Positions 2,529 through 34,607 of a DNA stretch of 64,000 nt are shown one piece after another. Below the pieces are notes generated by a model. It saw nothing but the letters and a program-made list of their open reading frames with translations. It had not been told where the DNA came from and made no database searches. A program made the position numbers and the translations under genes. The stretch is from Clostridiales bacterium (GTDB lineage Bacteria > Bacillota > Clostridia > Lachnospirales > Lachnospiraceae), in assembly GCA_022770525.1 (NCBI GenBank), contig JALEHN010000021.1:56259-120258 (forward strand), in the 5' to 3' direction. Each line of letters starts with the position of its first letter. Position 1 is the first letter of the stretch.

Positions 2529-2679
2529 AAAATTTCCTCCCCACTACTCAGTACAAAAAAAACGATACGGCTTAGTCTGTCATTTTAGCAATCATAAACG
2601 CTATGTATCCTGATTCTTCTGTATGGATATTTTCCATCAATCATCCCGTCATCGCACGCCCTTGGTGCGCAAATGCAGC

Positions 2680-2709
2680 AAAGGACACTTCGAATGTGAA
2701 GTGTCCTTT
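2680..2709 (-). terminator. 12-bp hairpin downstream of the esterase gene (no clear U-tract)
   Basis: AAAGGACACTTC-GAATGT-GAAGTGTCCTTT perfect inverted repeat about 45 nt after the stop at 2755. No T-run on either strand, so terminator function is uncertain. Confidence 0.35.
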
Positions 2710-2754
2710 GGAAAATATCTTTAAATTTTTATAAAATCCGCGCTATGCACTCAT

Positions 2755-5577
2755 TTATTTTTTATTGTATCTTTTTTTCCTGACAATCACAAACATCATA
2801 GCAGCTGCCAGTATTACTGAACCTGTAAATACGGCAAAAATCACATACAAATTCACAGTATCACCGGTCTTTACAGCATCCGTCTTTGAAGGCTTGCCCG
2901 AATTTGTCGGTGCCTTTGTTTCCGACGGATTTTTTGTCTCTGACGGGTCTTTGGTCTCTGACGGGTCTTTCGTTTCCGATGGATCTTTTGTCTCTGACGG
3001 GTCTTTGGTCTCCGACGGATCTTTTGATTCAGGAATTTGCGTCGTATCTGTTAATTTGACACCAAATGTATAATTTTTTCCGCTATACAAATGAACTGTA
3101 ATTTCACTGTCTGCGCCCAATCCGGCCAGCCAGTCTTTAAGCAGTATAATATGGTCATCGACAACCTGATAATCATTTTCCCCGAGTCCGTCAATAGAAA
3201 CAACAACGTTACCATTGAGTTTCATAGGCAGCTGTAAGTTTTTGTGATTCTCACCTTTTGTATTTTTATCAAATGTCACGGATTCTCCCGTTTTCTCTGC
3301 TTCAAATAAACCGTTTTTAAGGAAATGGTCACTGTGCATCTTCATGGAATACGGCATTCCTGCCATGTAAAAGGCACTGTTGTGGCCGCCGTCACGCAGA
3401 TCATATCCGTGTTCTTTACCCATACTGTCAAGATATTCATGAGCATTCACTGTCCACTGATACTGAACCATCGTATCCTGAAGACCGCAGTCCAGATAAA
3501 AATCATAAGCTTTAAGCTGTTCCGGTGTCAATCCCTTCAGATATCCCAGAGCTTCATCTGTAACCGCACCCATATGTGATGCTACTGAAGAATAAAGTTC
3601 AGGGAATAACGAACCTACGCTGACAGAACCGAAACCACCCATGGAAATACCTGTAAGACCTCTGAATTTGGCATCGTTTAATGTTCTGTAATTCGTTTCA
3701 ACCTCACTGCGTATCTCATCTGTCAAATGTGTACGCCAAGGTCCTGTTTCATCTGTTTTTGAAGGGTTCAGATCTGTATCTTTGTAGAATGCATTTTTAC
3801 CCGAATCCGGCATGACAACGATCATTTCTGTAATATTTCCCGAATTGATCTGGTCATCCATAAATCCCGCAATGCCGTCAACTTTTACAAATGAACTGCT
3901 GCTGGAATTAATACCATGGAGCAGATAAACAACCGGATATTTACGATCCGGATTTGTATAATAATCCGTCGGCAGATAAATACTATAAGAAAGTTTCTTG
4001 CCAAACAGCCCGGAATCATAACTGGTAGAATAACATCTGCTCCAGTTTCCTCTTTCCAGAGCATTGCCGCCGACAACCGCATAACATATCTCCACAGAAC
4101 CCGACTGGATTGTTTCTACACCACCCGGAGCAAAACTGATATCGTTTTCAGGACTTTCGCTCTGATCACGTCTCACACCTTTGATCGTACGGAGTGCTGA
4201 ATACCAGTAATTTCCTTCGTCATCGGTATAGACAGCCGTCTGTTCATCCGTTACGGAAATATTGCTGTACTGATCCATCATTGCCTGTATCTCGGCAACT
4301 TTATCAGCTTTTGAATCCGCATCATTGTGGTAATCTTCTGAAATTGTCGCTGCATAAGCCTCAATATCACCTGCTGCTAATGCCGCTTTCTGTTTTTCCA
4401 CAACATTATTTAATGCTTCCGACTCTGTTTTATTAACAGGCAGCCCTTTTAATGCACGCACAGCCATATCATTACCGCAGATTGCATAATTATTGCCGCT
4501 GTAAAAACCGCCGTAACCATTATTATTATACAGACGAATACAAATTTCATTTGTTCCGCCCTGATTTAAGTACTTTGAAGGAATACTGTACTCTCTTTGT
4601 ACTTCCCAGTAGGATTTCTCAAACATCACTTTATTTTCAGCCGGTGTATCAGCGCTGTAGTCAAATCCGCCTGTCGGAGAAATGTTCAATGTTTTGCTGC
4701 CATTGCCATCTTTAAATCCGCTTCCCGCAACAAGATGCCCGTTAATATAAACAACATCAAGGTCATCAATAATTCCAAGAAGTAATGTCACATTTTCATC
4801 ACTTGTAAAATCCGCAGGCAATGTGAAATTTCTGCATACCCAGGCTTCTGACCAGCTTGGCAGAAGTTTTTTACTGATATCATCTCCGTCTTCCGGTGCC
4901 TGAAGCATCTGTACTTCTCTTGAAGAAATCTCAGCTTCCGTCTTCACATCGGATTCATTCTCAGTTGATGCGTATTCCGCGGATGCTTCACTTTCTGATG
5001 CAGGCTCACTCTCTTTTGCTTCACTTTCCGCTGCAGACTCACTGTCTTTTGCTTCAATTTCCGCTGCTTCGGATTCACCTGTTGTTTCCTTGGTGCCATC
5101 AGCATCTTCTTTAGCACCGCTGTCTGCTGTACCATCCGTTTCTTCTGAAACACCCTCATTATTTGTATTTTCATTTTCTGAAGATTCGTCTGTCACATCG
5201 GATACATTTTCTTCAGAAGGCTCATTTGCCGCATCAGCCTCTACAACTTCATCGCCAGACGGTCTTTCAAGCTCCAGCAAACCTCCCGTTGCTGTGTTGT
5301 CCGACGGCATTGAAACAACTTCCCAGCTCTGCCAGCTTGAAGCAGACGGCAGCTGTGCTGCATCACTATCTTCCCACGTCACATCAACCATCCCATACGG
5401 AAAATACTGAAACATCCTGCTATATGTACGATACAGCTTGAAATGCCATTCGCCGCCAAGCGTTACATACTTTGACGCATCCTTGTCTGTTTCCTGTGCA
5501 TGAACTGTCACAGCCCCCGAAAACACAGTTTGAACTACAAGTCCTAATGTTAATAACATTGCCGCAAACCGTTTCAT
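2755..5577 (-). CDS. Secreted, surface-anchored multidomain esterase (alpha/beta hydrolase, putative carbohydrate esterase)
   Basis: Signal peptide MKRFAAMLLTLGLVVQTVFSGAVTVHA. Glu/Ser/Asp-rich low-complexity insert (nt ~4900-5280). Esterase core YPVVYLLHG with nucleophile elbow GISMGG. KDPSET repeats. C-terminal KTGD + hydrophobic helix + RKKRYNKK resembles a cell-wall sorting signal. Confidence 0.75.
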   Translation of the reverse strand: MKRFAAMLLTLGLVVQTVFSGAVTVHAQETDKDASKYVTLGGEWHFKLYRTYSRMFQYFPYGMVDVTWEDSDAAQLPSASSWQSWEVVSMPSDNTATGGLLELERPSGDEVVEADAANEPSEENVSDVTDESSENENTNNEGVSEETDGTADSGAKEDADGTKETTGESEAAEIEAKDSESAAESEAKESEPASESEASAEYASTENESDVKTEAEISSREVQMLQAPEDGDDISKKLLPSWSEAWVCRNFTLPADFTSDENVTLLLGIIDDLDVVYINGHLVAGSGFKDGNGSKTLNISPTGGFDYSADTPAENKVMFEKSYWEVQREYSIPSKYLNQGGTNEICIRLYNNNGYGGFYSGNNYAICGNDMAVRALKGLPVNKTESEALNNVVEKQKAALAAGDIEAYAATISEDYHNDADSKADKVAEIQAMMDQYSNISVTDEQTAVYTDDEGNYWYSALRTIKGVRRDQSESPENDISFAPGGVETIQSGSVEICYAVVGGNALERGNWSRCYSTSYDSGLFGKKLSYSIYLPTDYYTNPDRKYPVVYLLHGINSSSSSFVKVDGIAGFMDDQINSGNITEMIVVMPDSGKNAFYKDTDLNPSKTDETGPWRTHLTDEIRSEVETNYRTLNDAKFRGLTGISMGGFGSVSVGSLFPELYSSVASHMGAVTDEALGYLKGLTPEQLKAYDFYLDCGLQDTMVQYQWTVNAHEYLDSMGKEHGYDLRDGGHNSAFYMAGMPYSMKMHSDHFLKNGLFEAEKTGESVTFDKNTKGENHKNLQLPMKLNGNVVVSIDGLGENDYQVVDDHIILLKDWLAGLGADSEITVHLYSGKNYTFGVKLTDTTQIPESKDPSETKDPSETKDPSETKDPSETKDPSETKNPSETKAPTNSGKPSKTDAVKTGDTVNLYVIFAVFTGSVILAAAMMFVIVRKKRYNKK
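2915..3028 (-). repeat. In-frame 18-bp tandem repeat (about 6 units) encoding KDPSET
   Basis: Plus strand shows repeated gtctctgacgggtctttg-type units. Translated on the minus strand this gives SKDPSETKDPSETKDPSETKDPSETKDPSETKNPSETKAP. Confidence 0.95.
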
Positions 5578-5747: not shown

Positions 5748-7085
5748 TTATTTGTTTGCGTAATATCGCAGATTTTTAGCATTCCCTTTTTTGATCAACA
5801 TCCCGGCATCGGTTAATTCCCGCAAAAGCAAGATTGCCGTTGATTGAGACACACCCAGTGCCATTTCTACATCTCTGCGAACAATAAAGCCTTTACTGCG
5901 GCATAGATTCAAAACAGTATGCATTCGTTCTTGTTTTTTTGTCACACTGTCAGAACCACTCGTTTTAGGCGTATGCGAGACTTTCTGTTCTTCTGCATGA
6001 AAATTTGTATTAGGAAGTGTAATCTTAAACGCATTGCCTGTTGTTTCAATCAGAGGTTTCACATCATAATCATCATAACATTCATTGATTTTAAGAATTC
6101 CCGTACCATATGCTTCAATCAATCGCAAACGATAGAAGATATTTGCTAAATACTGATTGCGCAATACAGAAACGCCAAGTTTTATATCATCCAATGTAAT
6201 TCCTTTCACCAAACCGCCGATTGTCACGAATTCAATGCGGTCTTCAAAAATACTGATCAGCGTAGAGCCGCTGAAAGAATAGTCCCTATGGACAATAGCA
6301 TTTAATAACGCCTCACGAATGGCCTCCGGCGGATAATCTCGCATATCTAACCGATCCAACCCGGAAAATTCTGCACGGGTACGATTGTAACGATCAATGT
6401 AGTCGAAAGCTTCTTCCAGCTGCTCAAAAAGAGACCCTGACAATTCTTTGCGATCCTTAAAGACAGACTTCTTGCTGCCCTCAAAAACAGCCATTTTAAT
6501 CATATGTGTGCACTGATCGGACAACAAAAATGCCAAATTAGTGAACATATCATCCTCACCAATCAAGTGAAGTGTACGCATTTGAGCTTTTTCAAACTCT
6601 ATTTTCCGCTTTTCAAAGAAATCGGCAGCTTTATTAAAAGTAAGACACTGATTGAGAGACCGGGCCTCCTCATAGCTATCACCACCGGTCTCCTTAATCA
6701 TATTCAGGATAGCAACATCTGTTGCCGGAACTGTGGATGCTCCCTGGCGAACATAAACGCCCTCCGGACGAATTCCTTTTCCCTGCAAATAATATGGTCT
6801 TGCTGTACCTCGCTGGACAGTTACACGCACAATAGGCTTATCGTCCATGAAATCATTATTGCATTCTACAAACATAGTAACATCCGGACGCACGGCATCT
6901 CTAATCGCATTGGTTACACGCAGCATTGTACTATCAATATTATCAACGCCACAGACCGTTCCATCATCGTTCACACCAATGTAGAGTGTACCGCCGTCAC
7001 AATTTGCAAAAGCTATAATTGTATTTTTGATATCTTCAACATATTCTCTCTTGAATTCAGTTGTTTTATTCTCCGCAACCATCAT
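5748..7085 (-). CDS. Schlafen/AlbA_2 + HATPase_c_4 + C-terminal wHTH protein (COG2865-like, often annotated RecG-like regulator)
   Basis: EFKREYVEDIKNTIIAFANCDGGTLYIGVNDDGTVCGV (AlbA_2-type), REALLNAIVHRDYSFSGSTLISIF (HATPase_c_4-type), C-terminal LGVSQSTAILLLRELTDAGML HTH. Start moved to ATG 7085 behind SD GGAGG; the track start 7100 is TTG. Confidence 0.75.
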   Translation of the reverse strand: MMVAENKTTEFKREYVEDIKNTIIAFANCDGGTLYIGVNDDGTVCGVDNIDSTMLRVTNAIRDAVRPDVTMFVECNNDFMDDKPIVRVTVQRGTARPYYLQGKGIRPEGVYVRQGASTVPATDVAILNMIKETGGDSYEEARSLNQCLTFNKAADFFEKRKIEFEKAQMRTLHLIGEDDMFTNLAFLLSDQCTHMIKMAVFEGSKKSVFKDRKELSGSLFEQLEEAFDYIDRYNRTRAEFSGLDRLDMRDYPPEAIREALLNAIVHRDYSFSGSTLISIFEDRIEFVTIGGLVKGITLDDIKLGVSVLRNQYLANIFYRLRLIEAYGTGILKINECYDDYDVKPLIETTGNAFKITLPNTNFHAEEQKVSHTPKTSGSDSVTKKQERMHTVLNLCRSKGFIVRRDVEMALGVSQSTAILLLRELTDAGMLIKKGNAKNLRYYANK

Positions 7086-7098
7086 GTATCCTCCGACC

Positions 7099-7149
7099 AA
7101 TTCTAATCATAATCTAATCATATTCTAATTATATTCTAATCTAATAATT
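7099..7149 (-). repeat. About 11-nt phased AT-rich repeat (TTCTAATCATA-like, 4-5 units) in the 5' UTR of the COG2865-like gene
   Basis: ttctaatcata/atctaatcata/ttctaattata/ttctaatctaa/taattattata read directly, between the predicted -10 and the SD. Confidence 0.7.
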
Positions 7150-7177
7150 ATTATAATCATTTTTTCGTTATTTACAA
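7150..7177 (-). promoter_or_regulatory. Sigma-A-type promoter for the COG2865-like gene
   Basis: Minus strand TTGTAA-16 nt-TATAAT. Confidence 0.55.
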
Positions 7178-7210
7178 GAAAAATATGATTTTTTCTATCG
7201 GCTATATATC

Positions 7211-7250
7211 AAAAAAACTCTCCGTCGCCTGTAAGAGCAATGGAGAGTTT
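7211..7250 (-). terminator. Intrinsic terminator ending the long cbi/cob transcription unit
   Basis: Minus strand AAACTCTCC-18 nt loop-GGAGAGTTT followed by TTTTTTT, about 60 nt after the stop of the zinc-ribbon gene. Confidence 0.7.
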
Positions 7251-7308
7251 CAATGACATACCCTATTTATTTTTACCGGACTGTGTATTCAACCTGTTAT
7301 CCCGTAGA

Positions 7309-8094
7309 TTATATTAGTCCGTACTCTGCCAATACCGCAGCGATTGTACCGCCAAATATAATCATAAAAATGATTGTAAGAATGATCGGTACAAAGAACC
7401 ATATAATAACACCTTTACACATGGCTGCTCTGTTTGGATCCTTCTTGCTGCATGCCAATACGATCATAATAATAATATAGGCAATCGTCCCCAATACAGG
7501 AATCAAATGCAGAAAATTCAGACACATGATGCCAAACGCCCTGCCGCCTGTAAGCACTTTAGGACCCTGCTGCTGCATCATTCCCTGCTGAGGATATCCT
7601 TGCATACCATTCATGTTCTGCATTGAACCGTCATATGAAGGACCCTTCATTCCCTGCGCTGTATTGCCGTATGGTACACCGTTCATTTCCGGAACCGTAT
7701 TGCCATATGGTGTACCGTTCATTTCCGGAACCGTATTGCTGTATGGTGTACCGTTCATTTCCTGTGACATATTGCTGTCCTGCATATGATTCATATCTGT
7801 TGGTGCACCGGAAAGATTATCATAATCATATCCTGCCTGTGATGAAAGAACTTCTGTCTCATCATTTCCGCCGGTTATATCCCCGCTTCCATATCCATCG
7901 ATCATCGGTTCTTCTTCATTTGCCATAAAATCCTGGGCATCCCAACCTGATGATTCCTCTTCTTTAACTTCTTTCTTTCTTCGGACAGATTCATTTGTAT
8001 TCACAGGCTCACTTTTTTGTACCAGTGGTTTTCCACACTTATAGCAATATAAACTGCGATCATCATTTTGAGCACCGCACTGCAGACAAAACAT
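7309..8094 (-). CDS. Zinc-ribbon membrane protein with Met/Asn/Gly/Pro/Tyr-rich repeats
   Basis: N-terminal MFCLQCGAQNDDRSLYCYKCGKPL (CxxC..CxxC zinc ribbon). Repeats MNGTPYSNTVPE/MNGTPYGNTVPE/MNGVPYGNTAQG plus a Met/Gln-rich stretch. C-terminal hydrophobic helices. SD GAGGGAGG. No terminator separates it from the upstream gene. Confidence 0.65.
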   Translation of the reverse strand: MFCLQCGAQNDDRSLYCYKCGKPLVQKSEPVNTNESVRRKKEVKEEESSGWDAQDFMANEEEPMIDGYGSGDITGGNDETEVLSSQAGYDYDNLSGAPTDMNHMQDSNMSQEMNGTPYSNTVPEMNGTPYGNTVPEMNGVPYGNTAQGMKGPSYDGSMQNMNGMQGYPQQGMMQQQGPKVLTGGRAFGIMCLNFLHLIPVLGTIAYIIIMIVLACSKKDPNRAAMCKGVIIWFFVPIILTIIFMIIFGGTIAAVLAEYGLI

Positions 8095-8148
8095 ATTTAT
8101 TCCTCCCTCGTTATTATATCCTTTGATGACATTTTACAGTATAATTTT

Positions 8149-9108
8149 TTATCCGAAATAAACAAGCTCTTCTTCAGGTTTTTGCGCACTGACCGCCCGT
8201 TTTAAATAAAGCACCGGTCCTTTGCCATGGTATGACGGAAAGTATTCATACTTCACCATTGCCGTGATCTGAAGCCACATATTGGTTTTAAACTTATCAA
8301 TATATTTTGTTTTGCAGGCAAAACCGATAAACTGGATATCATCGGCACAGCATGTCATCGCATGGCGGCCCGGTACAAAATAACCTTCCGGGAACTCCTT
8401 ACTTAAATAGGCTTTGCCTTTAAAAGATACCATCTTATCCACATATTTTTCCGGCTCATCAAGAATATCCACATAAAAAACGCCAAAATCCTCATCGGCA
8501 ATCTCGATCACATCGGCATTGATATCATATGGCAGCTCCTCCTTGCCGATATCGATAGGATTGCCTTCCATATCCTCGAATCCGATCTGAACACGGCGGT
8601 TGACCGCGCGGATACTTCGCCTGTACATCGCAAGCTGCATATCCGGTGTACATCGATTGAAGAAGATCATCTCCGAAACAGCAAATATATCAAATAATAA
8701 CGGCTTCATATTGGCAAGATAGCTCTCAAAAGTCGTACCGTCGACCATGGTTACAATCTGATTGAGCATCCAGCCTTCCGGCATATCCATATCCAGGATA
8801 TCGTCCATTTTCCACATGCCGTTATATTCTATAAATACATATTTCGGACGGTAATAGCCCTTACAGTTATTTAAAAATTCCGATGTAAACTCTTCTTTGG
8901 AATCGACGGTCACCAGATCAACATTAACCCCGGCAAGCTCTTTTTCATCGAACTCCTCTTCGCCTTCCTCAGTAAGAATCAGCAGTGTTTTCTCGCCTTC
9001 CGTAAATTCCTGACCGATTAAAAGATCTCTGATAAATGTCGATTTCCCCGAATCCAGAAATCCGGTAATCAAAAACACAAGTGTACTTGGCTTTTCCACA
9101 ATGCTCAC
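8149..9108 (-). CDS. Degenerate G3E/CobW-like P-loop domain fused to a DUF1980 (TIGR03943)-like C-terminal CC-motif domain
   Basis: N-terminal LITGFLDSGKSTFI Walker A, then IEYNGM, VTMVDG and FFNRC in the positions of G3E motifs, but no CxCC. The C-terminal GRHAMTCCADDIQFIGF resembles the conserved CCxxD motif of DUF1980 C-domains. Track start is GTG; an alternative GTG at 9099 has a better SD (GAGGTG). Confidence 0.6.
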   Translation of the reverse strand: MSIVEKPSTLVFLITGFLDSGKSTFIRDLLIGQEFTEGEKTLLILTEEGEEEFDEKELAGVNVDLVTVDSKEEFTSEFLNNCKGYYRPKYVFIEYNGMWKMDDILDMDMPEGWMLNQIVTMVDGTTFESYLANMKPLLFDIFAVSEMIFFNRCTPDMQLAMYRRSIRAVNRRVQIGFEDMEGNPIDIGKEELPYDINADVIEIADEDFGVFYVDILDEPEKYVDKMVSFKGKAYLSKEFPEGYFVPGRHAMTCCADDIQFIGFACKTKYIDKFKTNMWLQITAMVKYEYFPSYHGKGPVLYLKRAVSAQKPEEELVYFG

Positions 9109-9112
9109 CTCT

Positions 9113-10309
9113 TTAAATATGGAACAGCTCTTTTAAAGCATCTTCTTTCAAATCTGTACCGATGACACATATTCTTCCGGTATACTCCGGTGCGCCAGCA
9201 CGCATTTCATATTCTTCCGGCACAAGGTCAAAGTAGATCCACTGGCCGTCCGCGCCTGCGACCATACCTTTTGCACGAAGTACATGTCCGTATTCTGCTG
9301 TTTCTGACAATGCTTTAAGAGCAATGTCCATTTCTTCTTTTGTAAATTTGTGCGGTGTTTCGACACCCCAGCTTGTAAACACATCATCTGCATGATGATG
9401 TCCGTGATCATGATGATGGTGATGATCATGATGTCCGCAGCATTCATCGTCGTGATGATGGTCGTGATCATGGTGTCCGCAGCATTCATCGTCATGATGG
9501 TGGTCGTGATCATGGTGATCATGGTCATGATGCTCGTGGTCGTCGTGGTCATGATCGTCATGGTCATGATGGTGTTCATGGTCATGATGGTCATGATGGT
9601 CATGGTCATGGTCGTGATGGTGTTCATGATCATGGCATTCCTCGCCTTCTTCATGGTGATGGCCGCAGCACGGACAGATTTCTTCTTCTTCGAAAATCTG
9701 ATCGGCAAGGGAGATTTTCTGCTCCATAACGTTCAGAATTTTAGCACCGTTCAGTTCCTCCCAAGGTGTTGTAATGATTGCCGCATCCTCATTGTGCTCA
9801 CGGAGCAGCTTCACCGCTGCTTCCAGTTTTTCTTCCGTCATATTCTGTGTACGGCTCAAAATAATCGTTTTGGCGTACTCGACCTGATTTGAGAAAAACT
9901 CCCCGAAGTTTTTCATAAATACTTTGCATTTTAAACCATTCACAATGGTCACAAGGCTGTTCAGCTCAACTTCACCTTCGACAGTAATTTTCTGCACCGC
10001 AGCCATAACATCAGACAACTTGCCTACGCCTGAAGGTTCAATTAAAATTCTATCCGGATGATACTCATCAATCACTTTTGTCAGTGCGCGTCCGAAATCA
10101 CCTACTAAAGAACAGCAGATACAGCCTGAGTTCATTTCTGTAATTTCAATACCGGCATCCTTCAAAAATCCGCCGTCGATACCAATCTCACCAAATTCAT
10201 TTTCAATCAGAACAACTTGTTCATCTTTAAAAGCTTCCTCGAGAAGCTTTTTGATCAGGGTCGTTTTTCCGGCACCTAAAAATCCTGAAAATATGTCAAT
10301 CTTTATCAT
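9113..10309 (-). CDS. COG0523 (CobW/ZigA-type G3E) metallochaperone GTPase with a ~97-aa His/Asp-rich insert
   Basis: FSGFLGAGKTTLI Walker A, GCICCS (CxCC metal motif), IEPSGVG. Residues ~211-307 (nt 9389-9679) are almost only H/D/E with CPCC and two ECCG motifs. CobW_C-like end. SD GGTGGA. Confidence 0.85.
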   Translation of the reverse strand: MIKIDIFSGFLGAGKTTLIKKLLEEAFKDEQVVLIENEFGEIGIDGGFLKDAGIEITEMNSGCICCSLVGDFGRALTKVIDEYHPDRILIEPSGVGKLSDVMAAVQKITVEGEVELNSLVTIVNGLKCKVFMKNFGEFFSNQVEYAKTIILSRTQNMTEEKLEAAVKLLREHNEDAAIITTPWEELNGAKILNVMEQKISLADQIFEEEEICPCCGHHHEEGEECHDHEHHHDHDHDHHDHHDHEHHHDHDDHDHDDHEHHDHDHHDHDHHHDDECCGHHDHDHHHDDECCGHHDHHHHHDHGHHHADDVFTSWGVETPHKFTKEEMDIALKALSETAEYGHVLRAKGMVAGADGQWIYFDLVPEEYEMRAGAPEYTGRICVIGTDLKEDALKELFHI

Positions 10310-11087
10310 ATCTTTCCACCCTTTCCTTCATATAATCCTGCAGAATCTGCCGGATTTTGTTCATTTTATATTTTGTATCAGCATTGGTATACTCAATCCT
10401 GTCCACAATCTTATCAATCCATTCATGATCAAGAATAATCTTTAATGTACAGTCAAAATAAATATCAAAAGTCACCGCAATATAGGACAGCCACATATCC
10501 GCCGGTGTTTTACGCTCCGAAGATAATACAGACTTTCTGTTTTCTGCCATTTCATAAACAATGTCTGTCAGCGGCGCCGCGCCGACTTCATCTGCCGTAA
10601 CATCAAGCATTGTCTCAACCTTATCTTCAAGCTTTACACGGTAATTATCCAGTTTGTCCGCATCCCGTATAATCTTTGCATGCAAAAGCTCCCGCTCGCT
10701 TAAGCCATCCCTTATGGCATAACAATTATGATTATCAATCGCTTCAAAAATGATTTTGTCATAAGTATCATCTTTAATAAACTGACGGATCAGCCCTTCC
10801 TCAAACAGCATTTGAACACCAAGCTTTGCATGGTCCACCGTTTCACTGTCCATAAATGAATGAAACTGACGCAGCTGTTCAAATCGTCCCACATCATGCA
10901 AAAGGCCGATCAAAATGGCAAGCTCCGTATCCTCTTTACCGAGTCTAAGCCCTGCCGCTATGTCAGCACATGATTTTTTTACCGCAAATGTATGGACGAC
11001 CTTAAGCCTGATTCTGTCATCGGAAATATCATAAGCTTTAATAAATTTCTGAAAAGCAGCTGTCGCTGCTGCCAGATCGATCGCCAT
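10296..11087 (-). CDS. HD-domain phosphohydrolase
   Basis: LLHDVGRFEQ ... DADKLDN HD-superfamily motifs. Start set to ATG 11087 (MAIDL...) behind SD AGGGAG, which overlaps the cbiC stop. The 3' end overlaps the COG0523 start by 14 nt. Confidence 0.75.
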   Translation of the reverse strand: MAIDLAAATAAFQKFIKAYDISDDRIRLKVVHTFAVKKSCADIAAGLRLGKEDTELAILIGLLHDVGRFEQLRQFHSFMDSETVDHAKLGVQMLFEEGLIRQFIKDDTYDKIIFEAIDNHNCYAIRDGLSERELLHAKIIRDADKLDNYRVKLEDKVETMLDVTADEVGAAPLTDIVYEMAENRKSVLSSERKTPADMWLSYIAVTFDIYFDCTLKIILDHEWIDKIVDRIEYTNADTKYKMNKIRQILQDYMKERVERYDKD

Positions 11088-11091: not shown

Positions 11092-11724
11092 TCACTCCCT
11101 GCATGCATACATCAGCGCATTGCAGATGGTTGCCGCAATATTGCTGCCGCCCTTGCGCCCGCGCGCAACAATGTAAGGTACGCCGGCTTTCATAATCAGT
11201 TCTTTAGATTCCACAACATTGACAAAGCCTACAGGAACACCGATGATCAGTGCCGGATCAACTGTTTTTTCCTGAATCATTTCATACAGGCGAATCAGCG
11301 CCGTCGGTGCATTACCGATTGCAAAAATGACCGGACCTTCGATTTTTGCGCCTCTTTCCATACAGATGGACGCTCTTGTCACACCGCGTTCCTTTGCCTC
11401 CAAAGCCACATCGTCATCACTCATAAAACAGCGCACGCTGCCGCCGAATTTTGCCAGCGTCTTTTTATTAATACCTGCTGCTGCCATCTGCGTATCCGTA
11501 ACAATCGTTGCGCCGCGTTTAATGGCCTCCATCGCAATCTTTGTACTGTTTTCTGAAAACACAAGATGATCCGCATAATCAAAGTCCGCAGATGTATGGA
11601 TACAGCGTTTAACAACTGAAAACTCCGGTTCCGGCCATGTACGCCCGCCAAGTTCTGACGTAATGATCTCCATACTGCGTTTTTCAATTTCTGTCGGTTT
11701 TACAATCTGTATATTATCAAGCAT
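11092..11724 (-). CDS. cbiC: Cobalt-precorrin-8 methylmutase
   Basis: PTEIEKRSMEIITSELG...CIHTSADFDYA...IGNAPTAL typical of CbiC. Start is 11724 (SD GGAG 8 nt upstream) or 11733. Confidence 0.9.
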   Translation of the reverse strand: MLDNIQIVKPTEIEKRSMEIITSELGGRTWPEPEFSVVKRCIHTSADFDYADHLVFSENSTKIAMEAIKRGATIVTDTQMAAAGINKKTLAKFGGSVRCFMSDDDVALEAKERGVTRASICMERGAKIEGPVIFAIGNAPTALIRLYEMIQEKTVDPALIIGVPVGFVNVVESKELIMKAGVPYIVARGRKGGSNIAATICNALMYACRE

Positions 11725-11754
11725 TTTTTCCATCTCCTATTCATGCATTCCGTA

Positions 11755-12316: not shown

Positions 12317-13816
12317 TTATACACCCGCATTTAAAATTTCATATATTTTTTCCATATCCAGCGAATTTCTGACAAGATCCGCCAGCTTATCATACTGTTC
12401 TTCCTTGTACGCCGAAAGATCAAAATGATAATCTTCCATCGTTATGCCTTTTTTCTCAAACAGGCCGGATACAATGGCATAGACAACACCTTCACTGTCA
12501 AACAGACCATGAAGATATGAACCGAATACTGTACCTTCTTTATTCATCAGCGCATCGATTCGTCCATCCTCAAGACGGATACACGGAACACATCCGCCAA
12601 GATTTGTTGTAACGCCCATATGAATTTCATAACCGGTCACATCAAACCCTTTGAGGGTATCAAAAAATCCTCCGCCGCCAATGACCTGTCCGTGAATCTG
12701 TGTCCGTGTCTTTGAATCCACAAACACAGTCTCTGTATCAAGAAGCCCCATGCCGCGCATTTCACCGCCATGTTCAACACCGTCCGGATCCAGAAGGTTT
12801 TTTCCAAGTATCTGAAATCCGCCGCAAATGCCGATGACAGGAACACCTTCTTCCGATTTGCGGATAATCATCGTTTCCAGTCCGTTTTCCCTTAGCCACG
12901 ACATATCATCCATCGTATTTTTAGTACCCGGAATAATGATCAGATCCGGTGTCCCAAGCTGCTCCCCACGGCTGACATATCTCAGTGACACATGTTCCAT
13001 ACGCTCAAACGCCGAAAAATCGGTAAAATTTGAAATATGCGGTATCTTTATCACAGCGATATCAATGCCTTCACCGGCAGACGTCATATTCAAACGCTCA
13101 GACAAACTGTCCTCATCATCAATATCAATATGGGTCATCGGTATAACGCCCACAACAGGAATATCTGTACGCTCTTCAATCATCCGGAGCCCCGGTTCAA
13201 GAATCTTTACATCACCGCGGAATTTATTGATAATTGTTCCTTTGATCATTTTCTGCTCATCATCATCAAGCAGCTTGACTGTACCGTAAAGTGACGCAAA
13301 CACGCCGCCCCGGTCAATATCCCCGGCAAGCAGCACCGGTGCCTTTGCCATCTTTGCCATACCCATATTGACGATATCATTTTCATGGAGATTGATTTCC
13401 GCAGGACTTCCCGCGCCTTCAATAACAATAATATCATATTCATCCGCAAGCTTATTATATGCTTTCATGATTTCAGGAATAAGCTCCGTTTTCCTCTGAT
13501 AATAATCCATCGCATTCATATTCGCCCAGACTTCACCGTTAACAATGACCTGAGAACCTGTATGACTCGTCGGTTTAAGAAGAATCGGATTCATATCCAC
13601 TGTCGGATCAATGCCCGCCGCCTCAGCCTGCATCGCCTGTGCCCGCCCGATCTCCAGCTGATCTTTTGTAATATAAGAATTCAGCGCCATATTCTGAGAC
13701 TTAAACGGTGCCACCTTATAGCCATCCTGCTTAAATACACGGCAAAGCCCCGCTGTAATAAAGCTTTTTCCCGAATTCGACATCGTACCCTGAACCATAA
13801 TTGCCTTTGCTGCCAC
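12317..13816 (-). CDS. cobQ: Cobyric acid synthase
   Basis: [24 protein letters not shown]-terminus and a C-terminal glutamine amidotransferase region ([10 protein letters not shown]). GTG start with SD GAGGTG. Confidence 0.92.
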
Positions 13817-13843
13817 TTTACATCACCTCGTCTTAACTGTCAA

Positions 13844-14599
13844 TTACTCAAATATCCGAAGCATCACCGGACAATGATCGGAACCGTAAACATCACTTAA
13901 TATCTGTGCGTCATTTAAAAACGCCTTAAGGCACTCTGACACGATAAAATAGTCAATACGCCACCCCGCATTGTTTTTGCGGGCATTAAACCGGTAGGAC
14001 CACCACGAATAAGCACCTGTCTTATCCGGATAAAAATATCTGAACGTATCAATAAACCCGTCTGACAGAAGGGCTTTCATCTTTGAACGCTCCTGATCCG
14101 AAAATCCGGCATTGCCCCGGTTTGTTTTCGGATTTTTCAAATCAATTTCTTCATTGGCAACATTGAGATCACCGCACATAATGACCGGCTTTGTCTGTTC
14201 CAGATTTTTAAGATACGCCTTGAAATCATCTTCCCAGGTCATCCGGTAATCAATTCTTGCCAGACCGTCTTTTGAATTCGGTGTATAAACATTGACAAGA
14301 TAAAATCTGTCAAATTCCAGCGTAATCACACGGCCTTCCTGGTCATGTTCCTCAATACCGAGCCCGTATGTCACGGACAGCGGCTCTTCCTTTGTAAATA
14401 CAGCCGTTCCCGAATAACCTTTTTTCACCGCATAATTCCAGTACTGGTGATATCCGGGAAGATCAAGCTGTATCTGACCCTCCTGAAGTTTTGTTTCCTG
14501 AACACAGAAAATATCCGCATCTATTGAATTAAAAATGTCCGTAAAGCCTTTGCCGACAACGGCACGAAGCCCGTTGACATTCCATGATATCAGTTTCAT
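13844..14599 (-). CDS. xth: Exodeoxyribonuclease III (Xth/ExoA, AP endonuclease family)
   Basis: [32 protein letters not shown] and SDHCPV are canonical ExoIII motifs. Gaps of 18-27 nt to cobD and cobQ place it inside the cbi operon. Confidence 0.9.
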
Positions 14600-14617
14600 C
14601 TGCTGCCTCCAATCCGC

Positions 14618-15667
14618 CTAAACAAGCACTTTTTTCATTCTTTCGATCATGGCTTTATTTGATTCATGATCATTAATCGCAATTCTATAATAATCCGTAT
14701 CCAGATTTTTATAATTACCGCATGTACGAATCATTACTTTTTCTTTTAAAAGCCGCTCATACAGATCCGTCACCCCCGGACAATGTATGAGCATATAATT
14801 GGCATTGCCGTGTATATATTCAACACCGATTTTTTCAAGTTCTGTCTCAAGGAATTTTCTTTCCCTGTCCACATATGAAATAACCTTTGTACAATACTCG
14901 TCTTCATCTAACAATGCAATTCCTGCCGATTCCGCCAGTGTACTGACAGCCCAGGACTGCCCGGCTCTCCGCATTTTTTCAATAGCCTCAGGATTCGAAC
15001 AAAGGCCAAACCCGAGACGTATCCCCGGAATCGCATACATTTTTGTAAAGGATTTTAAAATCAACAGGCGGTCATTACCTTGAAGTTCATGAACCAGTGA
15101 CAGTTCATCTTCACGGCCTGTAAAATCAAGAAAACATTCATCAAGCACAAGCCACGCGCCGCACTGTGCTGTTTTTGCGGCGATCTCAAGAAGCAGTGAC
15201 TTTTTGGTCAGGACACCTGTCGGATTATTGGGATTGCAGATAAACACAGCATCAATGTCATTATTGATCAAATCCAGTATATCTTCTCTGATTTTAAAAT
15301 CTTTTCTGCAAAGATCATAACTGATAATTTCTGTTTCGATGCACCGCATCGCTTCTTCATATTCAACAAAAGTCGGATGGATCACAACTGCCTTTTTCGG
15401 TTTTAAACCGTATACAAAACGATAAACAATATCTGCCGCGCCGTTGCCGCAGATGACCCACAAAGGATCAATGTTCATCTTCATCCCGATGGCCTTTGAC
15501 AACCGCCCTGACACAGGGTCAGGATAATGAAGCGCATTGGCCATCTCATCTTCAATGGCCTGCTTTACACTGTCAGGCATACCAAGAGGACTGATGTTTG
15601 CCGAAAAATCCAAAAGCTCTTTTTTTATATCTTCTGTAAATCCATAAAAGTTTCCGCCATGTAACAT
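14618..15667 (-). CDS. cobD: L-threonine-O-3-phosphate decarboxylase (class I/II aminotransferase fold)
   Basis: MLHGGN N-terminus, PNNPTG and KSFTK (PLP lysine) motifs. ATG 15667 behind SD GGGAGA; the track start 15682 is TTG. Confidence 0.85.
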   Translation of the reverse strand: MLHGGNFYGFTEDIKKELLDFSANISPLGMPDSVKQAIEDEMANALHYPDPVSGRLSKAIGMKMNIDPLWVICGNGAADIVYRFVYGLKPKKAVVIHPTFVEYEEAMRCIETEIISYDLCRKDFKIREDILDLINNDIDAVFICNPNNPTGVLTKKSLLLEIAAKTAQCGAWLVLDECFLDFTGREDELSLVHELQGNDRLLILKSFTKMYAIPGIRLGFGLCSNPEAIEKMRRAGQSWAVSTLAESAGIALLDEDEYCTKVISYVDRERKFLETELEKIGVEYIHGNANYMLIHCPGVTDLYERLLKEKVMIRTCGNYKNLDTDYYRIAINDHESNKAMIERMKKVLV

Positions 15668-15742
15668 AAAAATATCTCCCAATCATTTCTAATTTCAGAA
15701 CTCTTTAAGAGTTTTCCAAAGGAGTCATCTCCATCGGATAGA

Positions 15743-16594
15743 TTAACTTACATGTCCATAGATGATACTTTTCAGTGCCTCAACATCTTTTGGGCACTCT
15801 GTACTTCTTCCCGTAATTCCCTTCGCTTTTAAAGCTTCATATATTTCATAGACAGCAGGTTTTTTAAGATTTGCCTGCTCAAGTAATTCCTCATTGCCAA
15901 ACACTTCCTCCGGCGTACCGACCGCGCACAACCGGCTTTTGGAAAATACCGCGATCCTGTCGGCCCATCGGTAGGCAAAATCAACATCATGGGTCGATAA
16001 TACCACTGTGCGGCCCTCATCACTGATTTTTTTAAGGATCATCTCAAGATTTTCGGCATTGACCGGATCAAGGGCAGCCGTCGGCTCATCAAAAATAATC
16101 AATTTCGGATCCATCACAAGAATATCCGCTATGCTGACCATTTTTTTCTGACCGCCGCTTAAATAATGGGGCGGCCTGTCTTTTAAATCAAGAATGTTCA
16201 TATATTCAAGGGCTTTCAATGTACGCTCACGTGCTTCTTCTTTGGAATATCCAAGATTCAGTGCGCCAAACGATACTTCTCCATAGACTGTGGAAGCAAA
16301 AATCTGATTGTCCGGATCCTGAAAGACAATACCGACATTTTTCCGCAGATGAATTAAGCCCTTTTTATCATAAGTTACCGGTTTTCCCTCAAGAAGAATA
16401 CGTCCCGATGTGGGACTGTGGATACCGTTCATATTTAAAAATAACGTCGATTTTCCGGCACCGTTGGCACCGAGGACCGCCAGTTTTTCTCCGCTGTAAA
16501 TATCAAGATCAATATGATCCAGCGCCCTGTATCCGTCGGGATATTCAAATGTCAGTCCTTCTATTTTCATCAGTTCATTCATCACTGCATCCAT
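15743..16594 (-). CDS. cbiO: Cobalt ECF transporter ATPase
   Basis: GANGAGKST Walker A, LSGGQKK signature, IIFDEPTAALD Walker B. Alternative start ATG 16582 forms a TGATG overlap with the cbiQ stop. Confidence 0.9.
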   Translation of the reverse strand: MDAVMNELMKIEGLTFEYPDGYRALDHIDLDIYSGEKLAVLGANGAGKSTLFLNMNGIHSPTSGRILLEGKPVTYDKKGLIHLRKNVGIVFQDPDNQIFASTVYGEVSFGALNLGYSKEEARERTLKALEYMNILDLKDRPPHYLSGGQKKMVSIADILVMDPKLIIFDEPTAALDPVNAENLEMILKKISDEGRTVVLSTHDVDFAYRWADRIAVFSKSRLCAVGTPEEVFGNEELLEQANLKKPAVYEIYEALKAKGITGRSTECPKDVEALKSIIYGHVS

Positions 16595-17367
16595 CCTTTA
16601 AGTCTGAAAATGATACCGACAGCCAGAATACATACGAAATATATCACTGTCAATACAATCTGCCGCTTTTTGACCGGTTTTTCTTCGTTTAAAAATTCAA
16701 TCGTTCCGTCATAGCACCGCGCTTCCATGGCATTGTACATACGCATGGACCGCTTAAACGACTTCAAAAACAAACTGCCGGCAATCATCCCTGTCGAATT
16801 CAGCCATGTCTTTTTCGTCATATACCCCAGCCTTGAATCCGCGGAAATGACCATCATATGGCTTGTATCCATCAGAAGGAAAATAAACCGGTAAATCAAC
16901 AGCATCAGCTCCGTAAATATTTTCGGACATCGCAGCTGATTAAACACCTGCGTGATTTCAAACATCGGTGTTGACAGTGAAAGGAAATACAGACAGGCCA
17001 CCGTCCCAAAGGCCTTAAATACGAGAACAATACCTGTAAAAAGCCCCTCACTGCTGATGGATACATATTTCGAAAATACAGGAATCGATACAAGATCGGC
17101 AGGCTGGGATGTGATATTAATAATAATCGTCAAAACACCGACCACAAGAAAAAACAGGGGTATACGCAGCAGTTTCACATAGTACTTCAAACTGATTTTC
17201 CCTCTGGCCACTGTCAGCCACGACATTGCCAGAAAGATAAGAACGGAAACAGCAATATGATCCATGCCAAGGCAGACAACCATTGATAAAACAGCAATCA
17301 CAAATTTAAGCATCGGATTCATCTTATTCAGTTTTGAAATATATGCATATTTATCAATCGATGTCAT
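16582..17367 (-). CDS. cbiQ: Cobalt ECF transporter T component
   Basis: Polytopic membrane protein positioned between cbiN and cbiO. C-terminal AMEARCY-type motif. Confidence 0.85.
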   Translation of the reverse strand: MTSIDKYAYISKLNKMNPMLKFVIAVLSMVVCLGMDHIAVSVLIFLAMSWLTVARGKISLKYYVKLLRIPLFFLVVGVLTIIINITSQPADLVSIPVFSKYVSISSEGLFTGIVLVFKAFGTVACLYFLSLSTPMFEITQVFNQLRCPKIFTELMLLIYRFIFLLMDTSHMMVISADSRLGYMTKKTWLNSTGMIAGSLFLKSFKRSMRMYNAMEARCYDGTIEFLNEEKPVKKRQIVLTVIYFVCILAVGIIFRLKGWMQ

Positions 17368-17372
17368 CAGCG

Positions 17373-17678
17373 CTATGCCTCTTTCTTATATTTTGACCGT
17401 GCGACCATATATCCGATCGCGAAACATACGATTCCGGAACCGATGGCTGCCTGAAGACAGAAAAACAGGCTTTCCAGTTCAGACGGAATGCCGTCCGGAA
17501 AAATTCTTTCCATTACCGGTGAAAACCACGGCTCGTAATCAGGGTCAGCTTCCATAATCAGTTCCTCTGCCTGACCGTCAGAACCGCTGAATTCTGCTTT
17601 GCCGCCAAGGACGATCATCGGTACGGCCACAAGTAAAATCAGCAGAATGATTAAAATAACAACTGTTCTTTTTTTCAT
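17373..17678 (-). CDS. cbiN: Cobalt transport protein CbiN
   Basis: 101-aa two-TM protein directly after cbiM. Conserved gene order cbiMNQO. Confidence 0.85.
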   Translation of the reverse strand: MKKRTVVILIILLILLVAVPMIVLGGKAEFSGSDGQAEELIMEADPDYEPWFSPVMERIFPDGIPSELESLFFCLQAAIGSGIVCFAIGYMVARSKYKKEA

Positions 17679-17681
17679 CTT

Positions 17682-18446
17682 TTATGATTCCCCCTGTTTG
17701 TCTGACTTTTTGCCGTAAATCACGTCAAGGCTTTTAATTTCCTCTTTTCCATACTTCACGACAAGGTTGTAGATCAATACTGTCACAATACCTTCGGCAA
17801 TCGCCAGAGGTATCTGTGTCACTGCAAACACAGCAAGAAACTTTGCTGTCGCTGCCAAAAATCCGCCGGACGGATAGGCAATACCAAGCTGAATGGATGT
17901 CACGCAGTATGTGACAAGATCACCGAGGGCAGCTGCCAGAAATACGCCGACATAGGCATTGCCGTTCAGCTTTTTAACAAGTCTGAAAACGGCATAGGAA
18001 ACGATCGGTCCCGCGATCGCCATGGAAAATACGTTGGCTCCCAGCGTTGTAATACCGCCATGAGCCAGTAAAATTGCCTGAAACAAAAGGACGATCAATC
18101 CAAAAACAGATGTGGCCATAGGTCCGAAAAATATAGCGCCAAGACCCACACCTGTCGGATGGGAACAGCTTCCTGTGACCGAAGGAATTTTAAAAGAAGA
18201 CAAAACAAAGGCAAATGCCGCGCACATGGCGATTAACATGATTGTTTTTCTGTCTCTGTCAATAATCTTTTTTATAGAACGAATGCCGAGAACAATAAAC
18301 GGTACACAGACAACGCCCCATGCTATACAGTAAACAGGCTGCAAAAATCCTTCCATAATATGCATCGCACCGGATGGCAGCCCCGCGGCAAATACAAGCA
18401 GCAGTACAAACACCGGTATATACTTTATTTTTAAGTACTTTTTCAT
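17682..18446 (-). CDS. cbiM: Cobalt ECF transporter S component CbiM
   Basis: Signal-like leader followed by MHIMEGFL, the metal-binding mature N-terminus typical of CbiM. Multi-TM. ATG 18446; the track start 18449 is TTG. Confidence 0.9.
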   Translation of the reverse strand: MKKYLKIKYIPVFVLLLVFAAGLPSGAMHIMEGFLQPVYCIAWGVVCVPFIVLGIRSIKKIIDRDRKTIMLIAMCAAFAFVLSSFKIPSVTGSCSHPTGVGLGAIFFGPMATSVFGLIVLLFQAILLAHGGITTLGANVFSMAIAGPIVSYAVFRLVKKLNGNAYVGVFLAAALGDLVTYCVTSIQLGIAYPSGGFLAATAKFLAVFAVTQIPLAIAEGIVTVLIYNLVVKYGKEEIKSLDVIYGKKSDKQGES

Positions 18447-18541
18447 CAATTATTTTCTCCTTTTTAGTCGAATCCTGTATATTCATCTGATCACTGTCCA
18501 AAGCCGGCCTTTAAAAATCCCGGCTCCGGACATTAATCGAA

Positions 18542-23978: not shown

Positions 23979-24145
23979 GTTTAACATCTCCTCAAATAAA
24001 TTCATCTAACTATTCATTTGTATATGAATCTGACACTGCAAAATCCCCTTCCAATGCGCTGTCAGAAAAATATCTGTTATAATTTAATATATGGTTTGAA
24101 AAATCTGTCAGTTTCCCGTCTGATATACGGTCACCGATATATCTG

Positions 24146-26551: not shown

Positions 26552-26634
26552 TGTCATACCTCTTAAATGAAATTGAAGTCAGGCATCGCCGCATGACATC
26601 TTTTTATTTAAATATCTTTTATTCAAACATCTTT

Positions 26635-34360: not shown

Positions 34361-34399
34361 CTATATCAACCATAAACATATCGCCGTCCGATGTGTTCA

Positions 34400-34480
34400 T
34401 GTACTCCTTCCTGATAAAAATCATTAAAACCATACGCAGTACGCGGGCAGGATCTAAACCGCTGCATATACCGCATATTT
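34400..34480 (-). promoter_or_regulatory. Candidate, non-canonical cobalamin-riboswitch-like core upstream of cbiD
   Basis: Minus strand GCAG-CGGTTTAGATC-CTGC-CCGCGTACTG resembles the GGTGAAAATCC...CCCGC.ACTG core. GTACT is complementary to AGTAC in the downstream SD region GAAGGAGTAC. The AGGGAA block and the B12 box are not convincingly present. Confidence 0.35.
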
Positions 34481-34486
34481 TCATAA

Positions 34487-34595: not shown

Positions 34596-34607
34596 CTGTA
34601 TATGTAA

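Follow-up and report, generated by a model that had tools for sequence, protein, structure and literature searches.

A COG0523 GTPase and a G3E-DUF1980_C fusion protein form a conserved putative metallochaperone pair, found in one clade behind an anaerobic cobalamin operon

Results

A composite tail behind cbiC

The DNA analysed here (hereafter the window) is a stretch of 64,000 nucleotides from a Clostridiales bacterium of the Lachnospiraceae (assembly GCA_022770525.1, contig JALEHN010000021.1, positions 56,259 to 120,258). An operon for anaerobic cobalamin (B12) synthesis, referred to as the cbi operon, spans a long stretch of its minus strand. We report on the tail of this operon, that is, the four open reading frames (ORFs), also called on the minus strand, that follow cbiC, and in particular on two of them, which encode a GTPase of the COG0523 family and a fusion of a G3E-like domain with a DUF1980_C domain (the fusion protein). 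The features of the tail are listed here in the direction of transcription.

11092-11733, minus strand: cbiC, the last canonical B12 gene ahead of the tail (Pfam CbiC, 3.2e-79)
10296-11087, minus strand: HD-domain phosphohydrolase, 263 residues (Pfam PF01966, 1.8e-11, 44.8 bits against a cutoff of 22; HDIG, TIGR00277)
9113-10309, minus strand: COG0523-family G3E GTPase, 398 residues (Pfam cobW, 6.2e-37, and CobW_C, 3.7e-8)
9383-9676, minus strand: His/Asp-rich tract within the COG0523 gene, residues 212-309 (composition count)
8149-9099, minus strand: G3E-like/DUF1980_C fusion, 316 residues, GTG start (DUF1980_C, 7e-22; weak cobW N-domain match, 1.8e-8)
8338-8352, minus strand: CCADD (CC-x2-D) loop in DUF1980_C, a candidate metal site
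7309-8094, minus strand: zinc-ribbon membrane protein (Pfam Zn_Ribbon_1, 2.2e-6)
7211-7250, minus strand: intrinsic terminator closing the operon (stem-loop and U7)

A preliminary description of this DNA, made from the letters alone, had the four ORFs following cbiC without a terminator, in overlapping or near-abutting frames. This was borne out: from cbiC onwards, successive genes are first separated by 4 nt, then overlap by 14 nt, and are then separated by 13 and 54 nt, and a purine-rich ribosome-binding site lies ahead of every tail-gene start. The first terminator was also correctly placed at 7250-7211, where the folding energy is -29 kcal/mol (z = -7.2, with a U-run) and none of 200 shuffled sequences folded equally well. 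Between cbiC and this site, merely weak terminator-like matches were found, inside coding regions. The domain calls made for the four proteins (HD, COG0523, G3E/DUF1980 and zinc ribbon) hold in Pfam profile searches. What did not survive is the view of the four genes as one module, as the zinc-ribbon gene proved to be species-specific and the HD gene clade-restricted, leaving only the COG0523 and fusion genes conserved. We conclude that the tail is a composite rather than a four-gene machine, and that a two-gene G3E module is its conserved core.

Distribution and neighbourhoods of the pair

The distribution of the pair was scanned with one genome per species. At least 586 species-level fusion loci were obtained, of which the best 80 were kept, and genes could be called in 71 of these. 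In 63 of the 71 loci, which belong to Lachnospiraceae and Oscillospiraceae, the gene immediately upstream of the fusion encodes a COG0523 protein. The flanks of the pair are highly variable. Adenosine triphosphate-binding cassette (ABC) exporters are the commonest neighbours (8 of 65 loci). Ribosomal protein L20 comes next (4 loci), and assorted enzymes and regulators make up the remainder; apart from the exporters, no family recurs. Genes of the cbi group adjoin the pair in one of the 80 species loci (L006), and further members of this cbi-linked clade were found via exact look-up. We conclude that the pair is a self-contained, vertically inherited two-gene G3E module of Lachnospiraceae and Oscillospiraceae, which has no fixed neighbours.

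Two loci combine the pair with a Zn/Mn-type ABC importer. The first, L086, holds the closest relative of the window fusion (79% identical) and belongs to the cbi-linked clade; its gene order is cbiA, xth, an interval of about 140 nt, the COG0523 gene and the fusion gene, and a cluster of substrate-binding protein, ATPase and permease genes stands directly downstream of the fusion. The best NCBIfam matches of this importer were AztC, AztB and AdcA, all from zinc systems, with manganese systems close behind. In the second, L052 (Wujia sp., fusion 45% identical, outside the clade), genes of the same type follow the fusion immediately in another order (ATPase, permease, binding protein). Two independent captures beside a Zn/Mn-type importer therefore stand against a single evolutionary event of capture by the cbi operon. 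A run of N in L086 (3517-3616) was considered as a place where genes might be missing, and was rejected: the same sequence of about 55 nt is present on both sides, so that the run is an unmerged assembly overlap. In L005 and L010, an M24B metallopeptidase gene of the Xaa-Pro aminopeptidase type lies directly upstream of the pair (6975-8792 and 2638-4440, respectively). This neighbourhood recalls, by analogy, the eukaryotic COG0523 protein Zng1, which has the M24 protein METAP1 as its client (cited in PMC10206600).

The COG0523 protein

The sole sequence match of the COG0523 protein in the PDB was YjiA (1nij). A Walker A motif, GFLGAGKT, occupies residues 9-16, the Walker-B Glu lies in IEPSG (residues 90-94), and ENEFGE is also present. 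The CxCC motif reads GCICC (residues 62-66, 10126-10112) and aligns with GCICC of YjiA. The NKxD/TKxD guanine-specificity motif has been replaced, as LSRTQ (9859-9845) aligns with LLTKTD of YjiA. The C-terminal part is a CobW_C domain (PF07683, 33.5 bits against a cutoff of 22; residues 311-396, 9379-9122). The His/Asp-rich tract ahead of it comprises 98 residues, of which 48 are H, 26 D, 9 E and 8 C, and includes CPCC and two ECCG repeats; its length differs among strains, with COG0523 variants of 368, 390, 392 and 398 residues. The three features singled out by the preliminary description in the pair, namely a CxCC motif, a huge His/Asp insert and a CCxxD motif, could thus all be located, as GCICC, the 98-residue tract and CCADD.

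The tract is written as a repeat of CAT, GAT and CAC codons, which gives rise to long spurious ORFs in other frames (9148-9708 on the minus strand and 9350-9892 on the plus strand). The L052 homologue is split by a frameshift in its His tract (8882-9550 and 9348-9944).

The same set of traits recurs in the COG0523 proteins that partner a fusion: GFLGAGKT was found in 60 of 63, a motif of the SR[ST]Q type instead of T/NKxD in 62 of 63, and a His-rich window of 60 residues (at least 28% His) in 62 of 63. Judged by these motifs, the partner proteins are a coherent subfamily. The window protein reached 89.3 bits with the CobW equivalog TIGR02475, whose cutoff is 332.1, in an alignment confined to the N-terminal 125 residues; it also missed the cutoffs of ZigA (NF038288, 79.7 against 600) and PRK11537 (81.5 against 361). 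Because all three scores are below the cutoffs, the profiles place it in none of the curated subgroups, and it does not classify as a CobW orthologue.

The fusion protein

The N-domain of the fusion protein (9090-8572) had been described as a degenerate G3E-like P-loop. The G3E-like fold was confirmed, but the P-loop, GFLDSGKS, is intact and the Walker-B Glu is kept; what has been lost are the CxCC segment, deleted relative to YjiA in a profile alignment, and NKxD, in whose place FNRC is found. The C-terminal 125 residues (8529-8152) are the DUF1980_C domain (PF21537, 78 bits against a cutoff of 25.9). Its CC-x2-D loop carries the invariant family motif PGRxAMTCCxxD, which contains CCADD in the window copy. 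In an alignment of 20 fusion sequences, G13, G18, K19, E91, FNRC, C250, C251 and D254 were invariant. The length of the window protein, 316 residues, agrees with that of the database representative.

An AlphaFold2 model of the whole fusion had a predicted local distance difference test score of 85.9, and the C-domain modelled alone 92.5. The PGRxAMTCCxxD loop was the sole low-confidence segment, which in such a model fits a flexible metal-binding loop. With Foldseek, the N-domain matched HypB (2hf8, E = 8e-7), YjiA and UreG. The C-domain was modelled as an oligonucleotide/oligosaccharide-binding (OB)-like barrel with merely generic OB-fold matches (template modelling scores of 0.4-0.5), and the Foldseek search of the PDB returned no metal-protein relative for it.

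Full-length TIGR03943, named a putative permease subunit, scored 70.6 bits against a cutoff of 88.8, and only its positions 102-220, the C-terminal half, align. No hydrophobic segment (19-mer) was found in the fusion protein. Because such a segment is lacking, and the cutoff was also missed, the fusion is predicted to be soluble and not a membrane 'permease subunit' of the TIGR03943 type. With the TIGR03943/DUF1980 proteins it shares the C-terminal DUF1980_C domain, including the CC-x2-D loop; unlike them, it has a soluble G3E-like NTPase domain at its N-terminus and no membrane segment.

The family comprises 4469 clusters at 90% identity, named only "GTPase", "GTP-binding protein" or "TIGR03943 family", and the DUF1980_C domain about 1169 clusters at 50% identity. 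A literature search for DUF1980, TIGR03943 and COG3689 gave no paper treating them as its subject. The fusion gene family is already annotated but uncharacterised.

The HD and zinc-ribbon genes

The 80 best species loci contained no match to the HD protein or to the zinc-ribbon protein. The HD protein has the motifs LLHDVGR, DHAKLG and DADKLD, and its only relative in the PDB is an uncharacterised HD hydrolase (2pq7, E = 0.003). Its gene is present behind cbiC in L087, L089 and L092 and absent in L088/L006. In Dorea and elsewhere, homologues at 45-51% identity have sugar and HAD-hydrolase genes as neighbours, with no cbi or COG0523 gene nearby. The HD gene is an insertion between cbiC and the pair that is confined to the clade, part of which acquired it later.

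The last ORF had been called a Met-rich zinc-ribbon membrane protein. Its zinc ribbon (CxxC...CxxC) and its hydrophobic 19-mers, which start at residue 186 and correspond to C-terminal transmembrane segments, were found again. Its methionines (7.3%) form no clear Met motif, and belong to a repeat linker of low complexity rich in Q, N, G and M. We considered the protein as a Met-rich metal binder and rejected this, given the low-complexity linker, the species-specific gene and its own ribosome-binding site. The 90% identity cluster has 11 members, all from one species, and the gene is absent from the clade relatives L087, L088, L089 and L092. It is a species-specific passenger with its own ribosome-binding site.

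The cbi-linked clade

According to Pfam and NCBIfam, the operon reads CbiD, CbiET, CbiL, CbiF, CbiG, HemA, CbiH and a CysG-N/SirC-like protein, then a HemC-CobA-HemD fusion, HemB, HemL, CbiJ, CbiA, CbiB, CbiMNQO and CobD, and finally exodeoxyribonuclease III (xth), CbiP, CobO, CbiC and the four tail ORFs. This agrees with the preliminary description, which had credited the cluster with CbiMNQO and the anaerobic ring-modification genes. Four of these features are needed below.

26635-27276, minus strand: CysG-N/Met8/SirC-type NAD-binding protein, 213 residues (PF13241, 6.6e-24, 84.9 bits)
23001-24005, minus strand: hemB, porphobilinogen synthase (Pfam ALAD, 4.9e-147)
15743-18449, minus strand: cbiMNQO, cobalt energy-coupling factor importer, inside the operon (Pfam)
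13844-14599, minus strand: xth, exodeoxyribonuclease III (TIGR00633, 331 bits against a cutoff of 99)

The triple fusion of HemC, CobA (SUMT) and HemD is one protein of 803 residues (24146-26557, minus strand), and it is kept in two relatives, L093 (805 residues) and L094 (800 residues).

The order cbiC-HD-COG0523-fusion is found in the window, in L089 (fusion 73% identical), in L087 (62%, a closed genome of 2.77 Mb) and in L092. The order cbiC-COG0523-fusion, without the HD gene, is found in L088/L006 (Candidatus Scybalocola faecavium, fusion 61% identical). Directly upstream of cbiM, a cobalamin riboswitch (RF00174) was detected in L087 (589-763, 90.6 bits) and in L092 (2475-2646, 109.4 bits). 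In both, the genes are tightly packed from cbiM through the fusion, and in L087 a strong bidirectional terminator lies 20 nt past the fusion gene. The window itself gave no Rfam cobalamin riboswitch at the gathering threshold, nor at E ≤ 1 upstream of cbiD (34361-34607), and the gap between cbiB and cbiM is only 92 nt (18450-18541). The riboswitch has apparently been lost in the window lineage.

The xth gene lies between cobD and cbiP, a position kept in L006, L087, L088 and L092; in L086 it is beside cbiA. Because it holds a conserved internal position, the operon carries at least one unrelated passenger.

If the cbi-linked copies had gained a new client, their client-facing domains might have diverged in excess. 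Domain identities were therefore compared at matched G-domain identity, between clade and non-clade sequences on the one hand and among non-clade sequences on the other. They were 58 vs 58% for CobW_C, 44 vs 43% for the fusion N-domain, and 49.5 vs 48.4% for the fusion C-domain. As there is no excess divergence, this test for neofunctionalisation is null, and the sequences give no sign of a new client in the cbi-linked copies.

The class II cobaltochelatase and the CysG-N protein

The preliminary description had noted that no sirohydrochlorin cobaltochelatase of the CbiK or CbiX type is visible in the window, and our searches led to the same result. Neither CbiK (PF06180) nor CbiX (PF01903) had a Pfam match in the 37 window ORFs scanned, a set that leaves aside several large ORFs beyond 45 kb. 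A tblastn search of the six frames of the window with a CbiK query identical to PDB 1QGO gave nothing at E below 3, nor did a hidden Markov model built from three CbiK sequences (1QGO and two relatives). For CbiX, the negative result stands on the Pfam scans and on the fact that no intergenic gap in the operon could hold even a short CbiX. L093 and L094, which represent the upstream half of the operon in the same gene order, likewise have no CbiK/CbiX family match on record, and the lack of a chelatase in the operon is for this reason a trait of the clade; what is absent concerns the operon only. A hidden CbiK in L088, suggested by a weak tblastn match of Salmonella CbiK (E = 0.003), was rejected as spurious: the match is a bona fide DegV gene (Pfam, 6e-63).

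The operon of L093 is broken between hemC/cobA/hemD and hemB by an insertion (13072-16146). It holds an ORF of 130 residues, a chloramphenicol acetyltransferase-like gene, a small zinc-ribbon gene and a Fic gene; the 130-residue ORF is unannotated and had no Pfam match.

Annotated B12 pathways frequently have gaps, even among verified producers (PMC7360928), so that a missing cbiK in one cluster is weak evidence when taken alone. The nucleotide-loop genes cobU, cobS, cobT and cobC were also not found among the Pfam-scanned ORFs of the window.

The sole candidate for a chelatase in the operon is the 213-residue protein of the CysG-N/Met8/SirC type. This NAD_binding_7 protein passes TIGR01470 (113.6 bits against a cutoff of 62.3), is named bifunctional dehydrogenase/ferrochelatase by NCBI, and is on this basis a predicted precorrin-2 dehydrogenase. 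By sequence, it belongs to the same family as the class III chelatases CysG-B and Met8p and as SirC. The residues that decide on chelation are undefined, and sequence cannot separate the bifunctional Met8p from SirC, which is a dehydrogenase only (PMC7242693).

Discussion

A putative heterodimeric G3E chaperone

COG0523 is a large family of metallochaperones. Over half of its proteins had no inferred role in a survey of 2009 (PMC2770081), and the literature that we searched names few clients of the family. The present work defines a distinct and very widespread COG0523 subfamily of gut Clostridia, recognised by SRTQ, a near-universal His tract and a CxCC-less G3E-DUF1980_C partner. What would be new is a COG0523 metallochaperone system with such a partner as an obligate component, a role that is predicted from the sequences. 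With the zinc-linked YjiA, YeiR, ZigA, ZagA/YciC and Zng1, the window protein has in common the family, the motifs and a variable context, including the occasional Znu-type importer (L086, L052) or M24 peptidase (L005, L010) next to the gene; unlike them, it falls below the ZigA and PRK11537 cutoffs and has no detected Zur-like operator. We know of no zinc-linked COG0523 protein for which an obligate paralogous partner has been described. The nickel pairs HypB-HypA and UreG-UreE also combine a G3E NTPase with a second protein, a metal-binding accessory factor from the neighbouring gene, and HypB, YjiA and UreG are the closest structural relatives of the fusion N-domain. In contrast to these pairs, the accessory metal-binding domain and a second G3E domain, which lacks CxCC, are here parts of one polypeptide, and there is no hydrogenase or urease context.

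G3E proteins are nucleotide-dependent dimers, which bind metal near the interface of their G-domains. Because a CxCC-bearing protein and a CxCC-less paralogue make up a conserved adjacent pair, the sequences suggest that the COG0523 and fusion proteins form a heterodimer through their two G-domains. To our knowledge, a heterodimeric G3E chaperone is an architecture not described before. The COG0523 subunit would take up metal at its CxCC motif in the nucleotide-triphosphate state, buffered locally by the His/Asp tract. In the partner, the CC-x2-D loop would then receive the metal, or present it to clients. CobW_C would be the client domain of the COG0523 subunit, and DUF1980_C would stand in its place in the partner.

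A proposed general, probably zinc, module under cbi control

The reading that we prefer, and to which we give an even chance, is that the pair is a general, probably zinc, G3E chaperone module which one clade has placed under the control of its cbi operon. The pair would have been captured at the 3' end of the operon in that clade, the HD gene joining later in part of it and the zinc-ribbon gene only in the window species. Most likely the metal is zinc, or the module is not exclusive for one metal. Zinc is favoured because two independent lineages have a Zn/Mn-type importer next to the pair, and because the cbi-linked copies are undiverged. Co-expression with the cbi genes may serve metal needs within the operon, those of a zinc-type HemB or those for cobalt, or the pair may be a passenger like xth. 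If the pair is a zinc system, it opens a new way of approaching how dominant gut anaerobes allocate zinc.

Several observations weigh against this reading. The Znu/Azt-like importers of L086 and L052 miss all curated cutoffs and could be of the manganese type, which makes the assignment to zinc a weak one. Simple motif scans of 46-48 regions upstream of the pair, which looked for enriched 8-mers, perfect and near-perfect palindromes, the B. subtilis Zur box and TGCAAAT-N-ATTTGCA, found no shared Zur-like operator, and the only enriched 8-mer word was the start of the coding region; for this reason the link to zinc comes from gene context. Around six lineages, with fusion identities as low as 61%, have kept the pair behind cbiC and translationally coupled. 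In L087 and L092, the pair is part of a B12-regulated unit whose first genes are those of the cobalt importer, as deduced from the riboswitch before cbiM, the tight packing and the terminator after the fusion. Location in a B12 cluster, and/or a cobalamin riboswitch upstream, was an earlier criterion for true cobW genes (PMC2770081), and this is the context seen in L087 and L092. Lastly, an operon that is clade-wide without a class II chelatase leaves room for a need of cobalt delivery.

Possible cobalt delivery to the early-insertion route

A dedicated cobalt-delivery role of the pair is possible. The preliminary description had proposed that the tail buffers and delivers cobalt, possibly to a Met8/SirC-like chelatase. 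Confined to the pair, the proposal is that of a Co(II) chaperone for early insertion in this clade, which would pass cobalt from CbiMNQO to the protein of the CysG-N/Met8 type, acting as a class III sirohydrochlorin cobaltochelatase, and so offset the operon's lack of CbiK and CbiX. The junctions indicate that the pair is co-transcribed and translationally coupled with cbiC, its position is kept in the window, L089, L087, L092, L088 and L006, and the riboswitch-headed unit of L087 and L092 runs from cbiMNQO to the pair, with a terminator following the fusion. CbiK and CbiX were found neither in the operon here nor in L093/L094, a CysG-N family gene is at hand, and CobW, of the same family, is an established Co(II) chaperone (PMC7895991, PMC10206600).

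The parallel with CobW of Pseudomonas denitrificans and Rhodobacter capsulatus, which serves CobNST, extends to Walker A, CxCC, a His-rich stretch, CobW_C, the location in a B12 cluster and, in two relatives, a position downstream of a cobalamin riboswitch. It ends with the pathway: the cluster is of the cbi type (CbiD, CbiG, CbiMNQO), with early insertion, and cobN, cobS and cobT were not found in it. Moreover, SRTQ stands for NKxD, a second G3E-like gene is always alongside, and orthologues are mostly outside B12 clusters; the window protein is no CobW orthologue. As the preliminary description had stated, the literature searched documents help by a COG0523 protein only for the late CobNST route (PMC10206600, PMC2770081), where it is described solely as CobW, encoded beside cobN (PMC2770081, PMC7689651). 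The early route is called chaperone-independent and, by published thermodynamics, needs no chaperone when CbiK is used (PMC10206600).

The distribution of the pair also argues against a Co(II) chaperone, about 65 other species having the orthologous pair away from cbi clusters, in two cases beside Zn/Mn-type importers, and so does the lack of accelerated divergence in the client-facing domains of the cbi-linked clade. The xth gene shows that the operon carries unrelated genes. The absence of cobU, cobS, cobT and cobC from the window implies that B12 genes, possibly including cbiK, are located elsewhere. The preliminary description had also asked whether orthologues lie mostly in Zur-regulated zinc loci apart from cbi genes: they do lie apart from them, cbi genes being adjacent in one of 80 loci, but no Zur-like operator was found with them in the motif scans. 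Taken together, the riboswitch of L087 and L092, the clade-wide lack of a class II chelatase in the operon and the precedent of CobW speak for cobalt, and the distribution, the Zn/Mn-type contexts and the lack of divergence against it, and we regard a Co(II) chaperone as a doubtful but serious possibility.

A more specific form of this proposal is that the early-insertion pathway of the clade, having no class II chelatase, relies on a GTP-driven COG0523 and G3E-DUF1980_C chaperone, co-regulated with CbiMNQO by the B12 riboswitch, which would load Co(II) onto a putative class III chelatase of the Met8/CysG-N type. We think this rather unlikely. If true, it would be the first metallochaperone-dependent early-insertion route and would give DUF1980_C its first function. 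A pair locked into a cbi operon without CbiK or CbiX is a testable exception to the chaperone-free early route, and bears on B12 production in the gut and on pathway engineering.

Possible pathway or zinc roles linked to the operon

HD-domain proteins are typically phosphohydrolases. The HD protein might thus serve the pathway, for example as a non-orthologous substitute for CobC, recruited apart from the pair and with no part in metal handling. Its place between cbiC and the pair in some clade members only would suit such a role, as would the fact that cobC was not found among the Pfam-scanned window ORFs. In the PDB, however, no characterised enzyme resembles the HD protein, relatives sharing about 47-51% identity stand in unrelated sugar/HAD contexts, and cobC may simply reside elsewhere in the genome. 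We consider this quite unlikely.

Very unlikely, finally, is a pair that acts as zinc chaperone for the zinc-type HemB of the operon, securing zinc for a committed early step, or for another zinc enzyme tied to the use of B12 such as MetH. The translation of hemB has a Cys-rich active-site motif, DICLCEYTSHGHCG, of a class which we take from textbook knowledge to mark zinc-dependent porphobilinogen synthases, so that HemB is a possible zinc client inside the operon, and Znu/Azt-like importers adjoin the pair in L086 and L052. COG0523 proteins studied outside CobW are mostly linked to zinc, and zinc-independent HemB paralogues occur in Zur regulons (PMC2770081 and background knowledge). Against this, hemB lies 13 kb upstream of the pair and, in L087 and L092, upstream of the riboswitch that heads the unit from cbiM to the pair; most species carry the pair at a distance from hemB.

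Other features of the window

Directly upstream of the cbi operon lies a gene for a flavodiiron-type protein of 616 residues (34608-36458, minus strand), with ODP/metallo-beta-lactamase, flavodoxin, flavin reductase and rubredoxin-like domains. Past the terminator, a gene with Schlafen/AlbA_2 and HATPase_c_4 domains (5748-7200, minus strand) has ahead of it an AT-rich region in which 'attagat/attagaa' words recur (7100-7180). Beyond this gene, the sequence is unlike that of another metagenome-assembled genome of the same species (GCA_034100205.1), which marks a strain-variable region. A second corrinoid adenosyltransferase paralogue of the CobA/CobO/BtuR type (59459-59983, minus strand; PF02572, 4.6e-43) was found remote from the cbi operon; it lies immediately upstream of a lysine riboswitch (59234-59404) that accompanies dapA and dapB.

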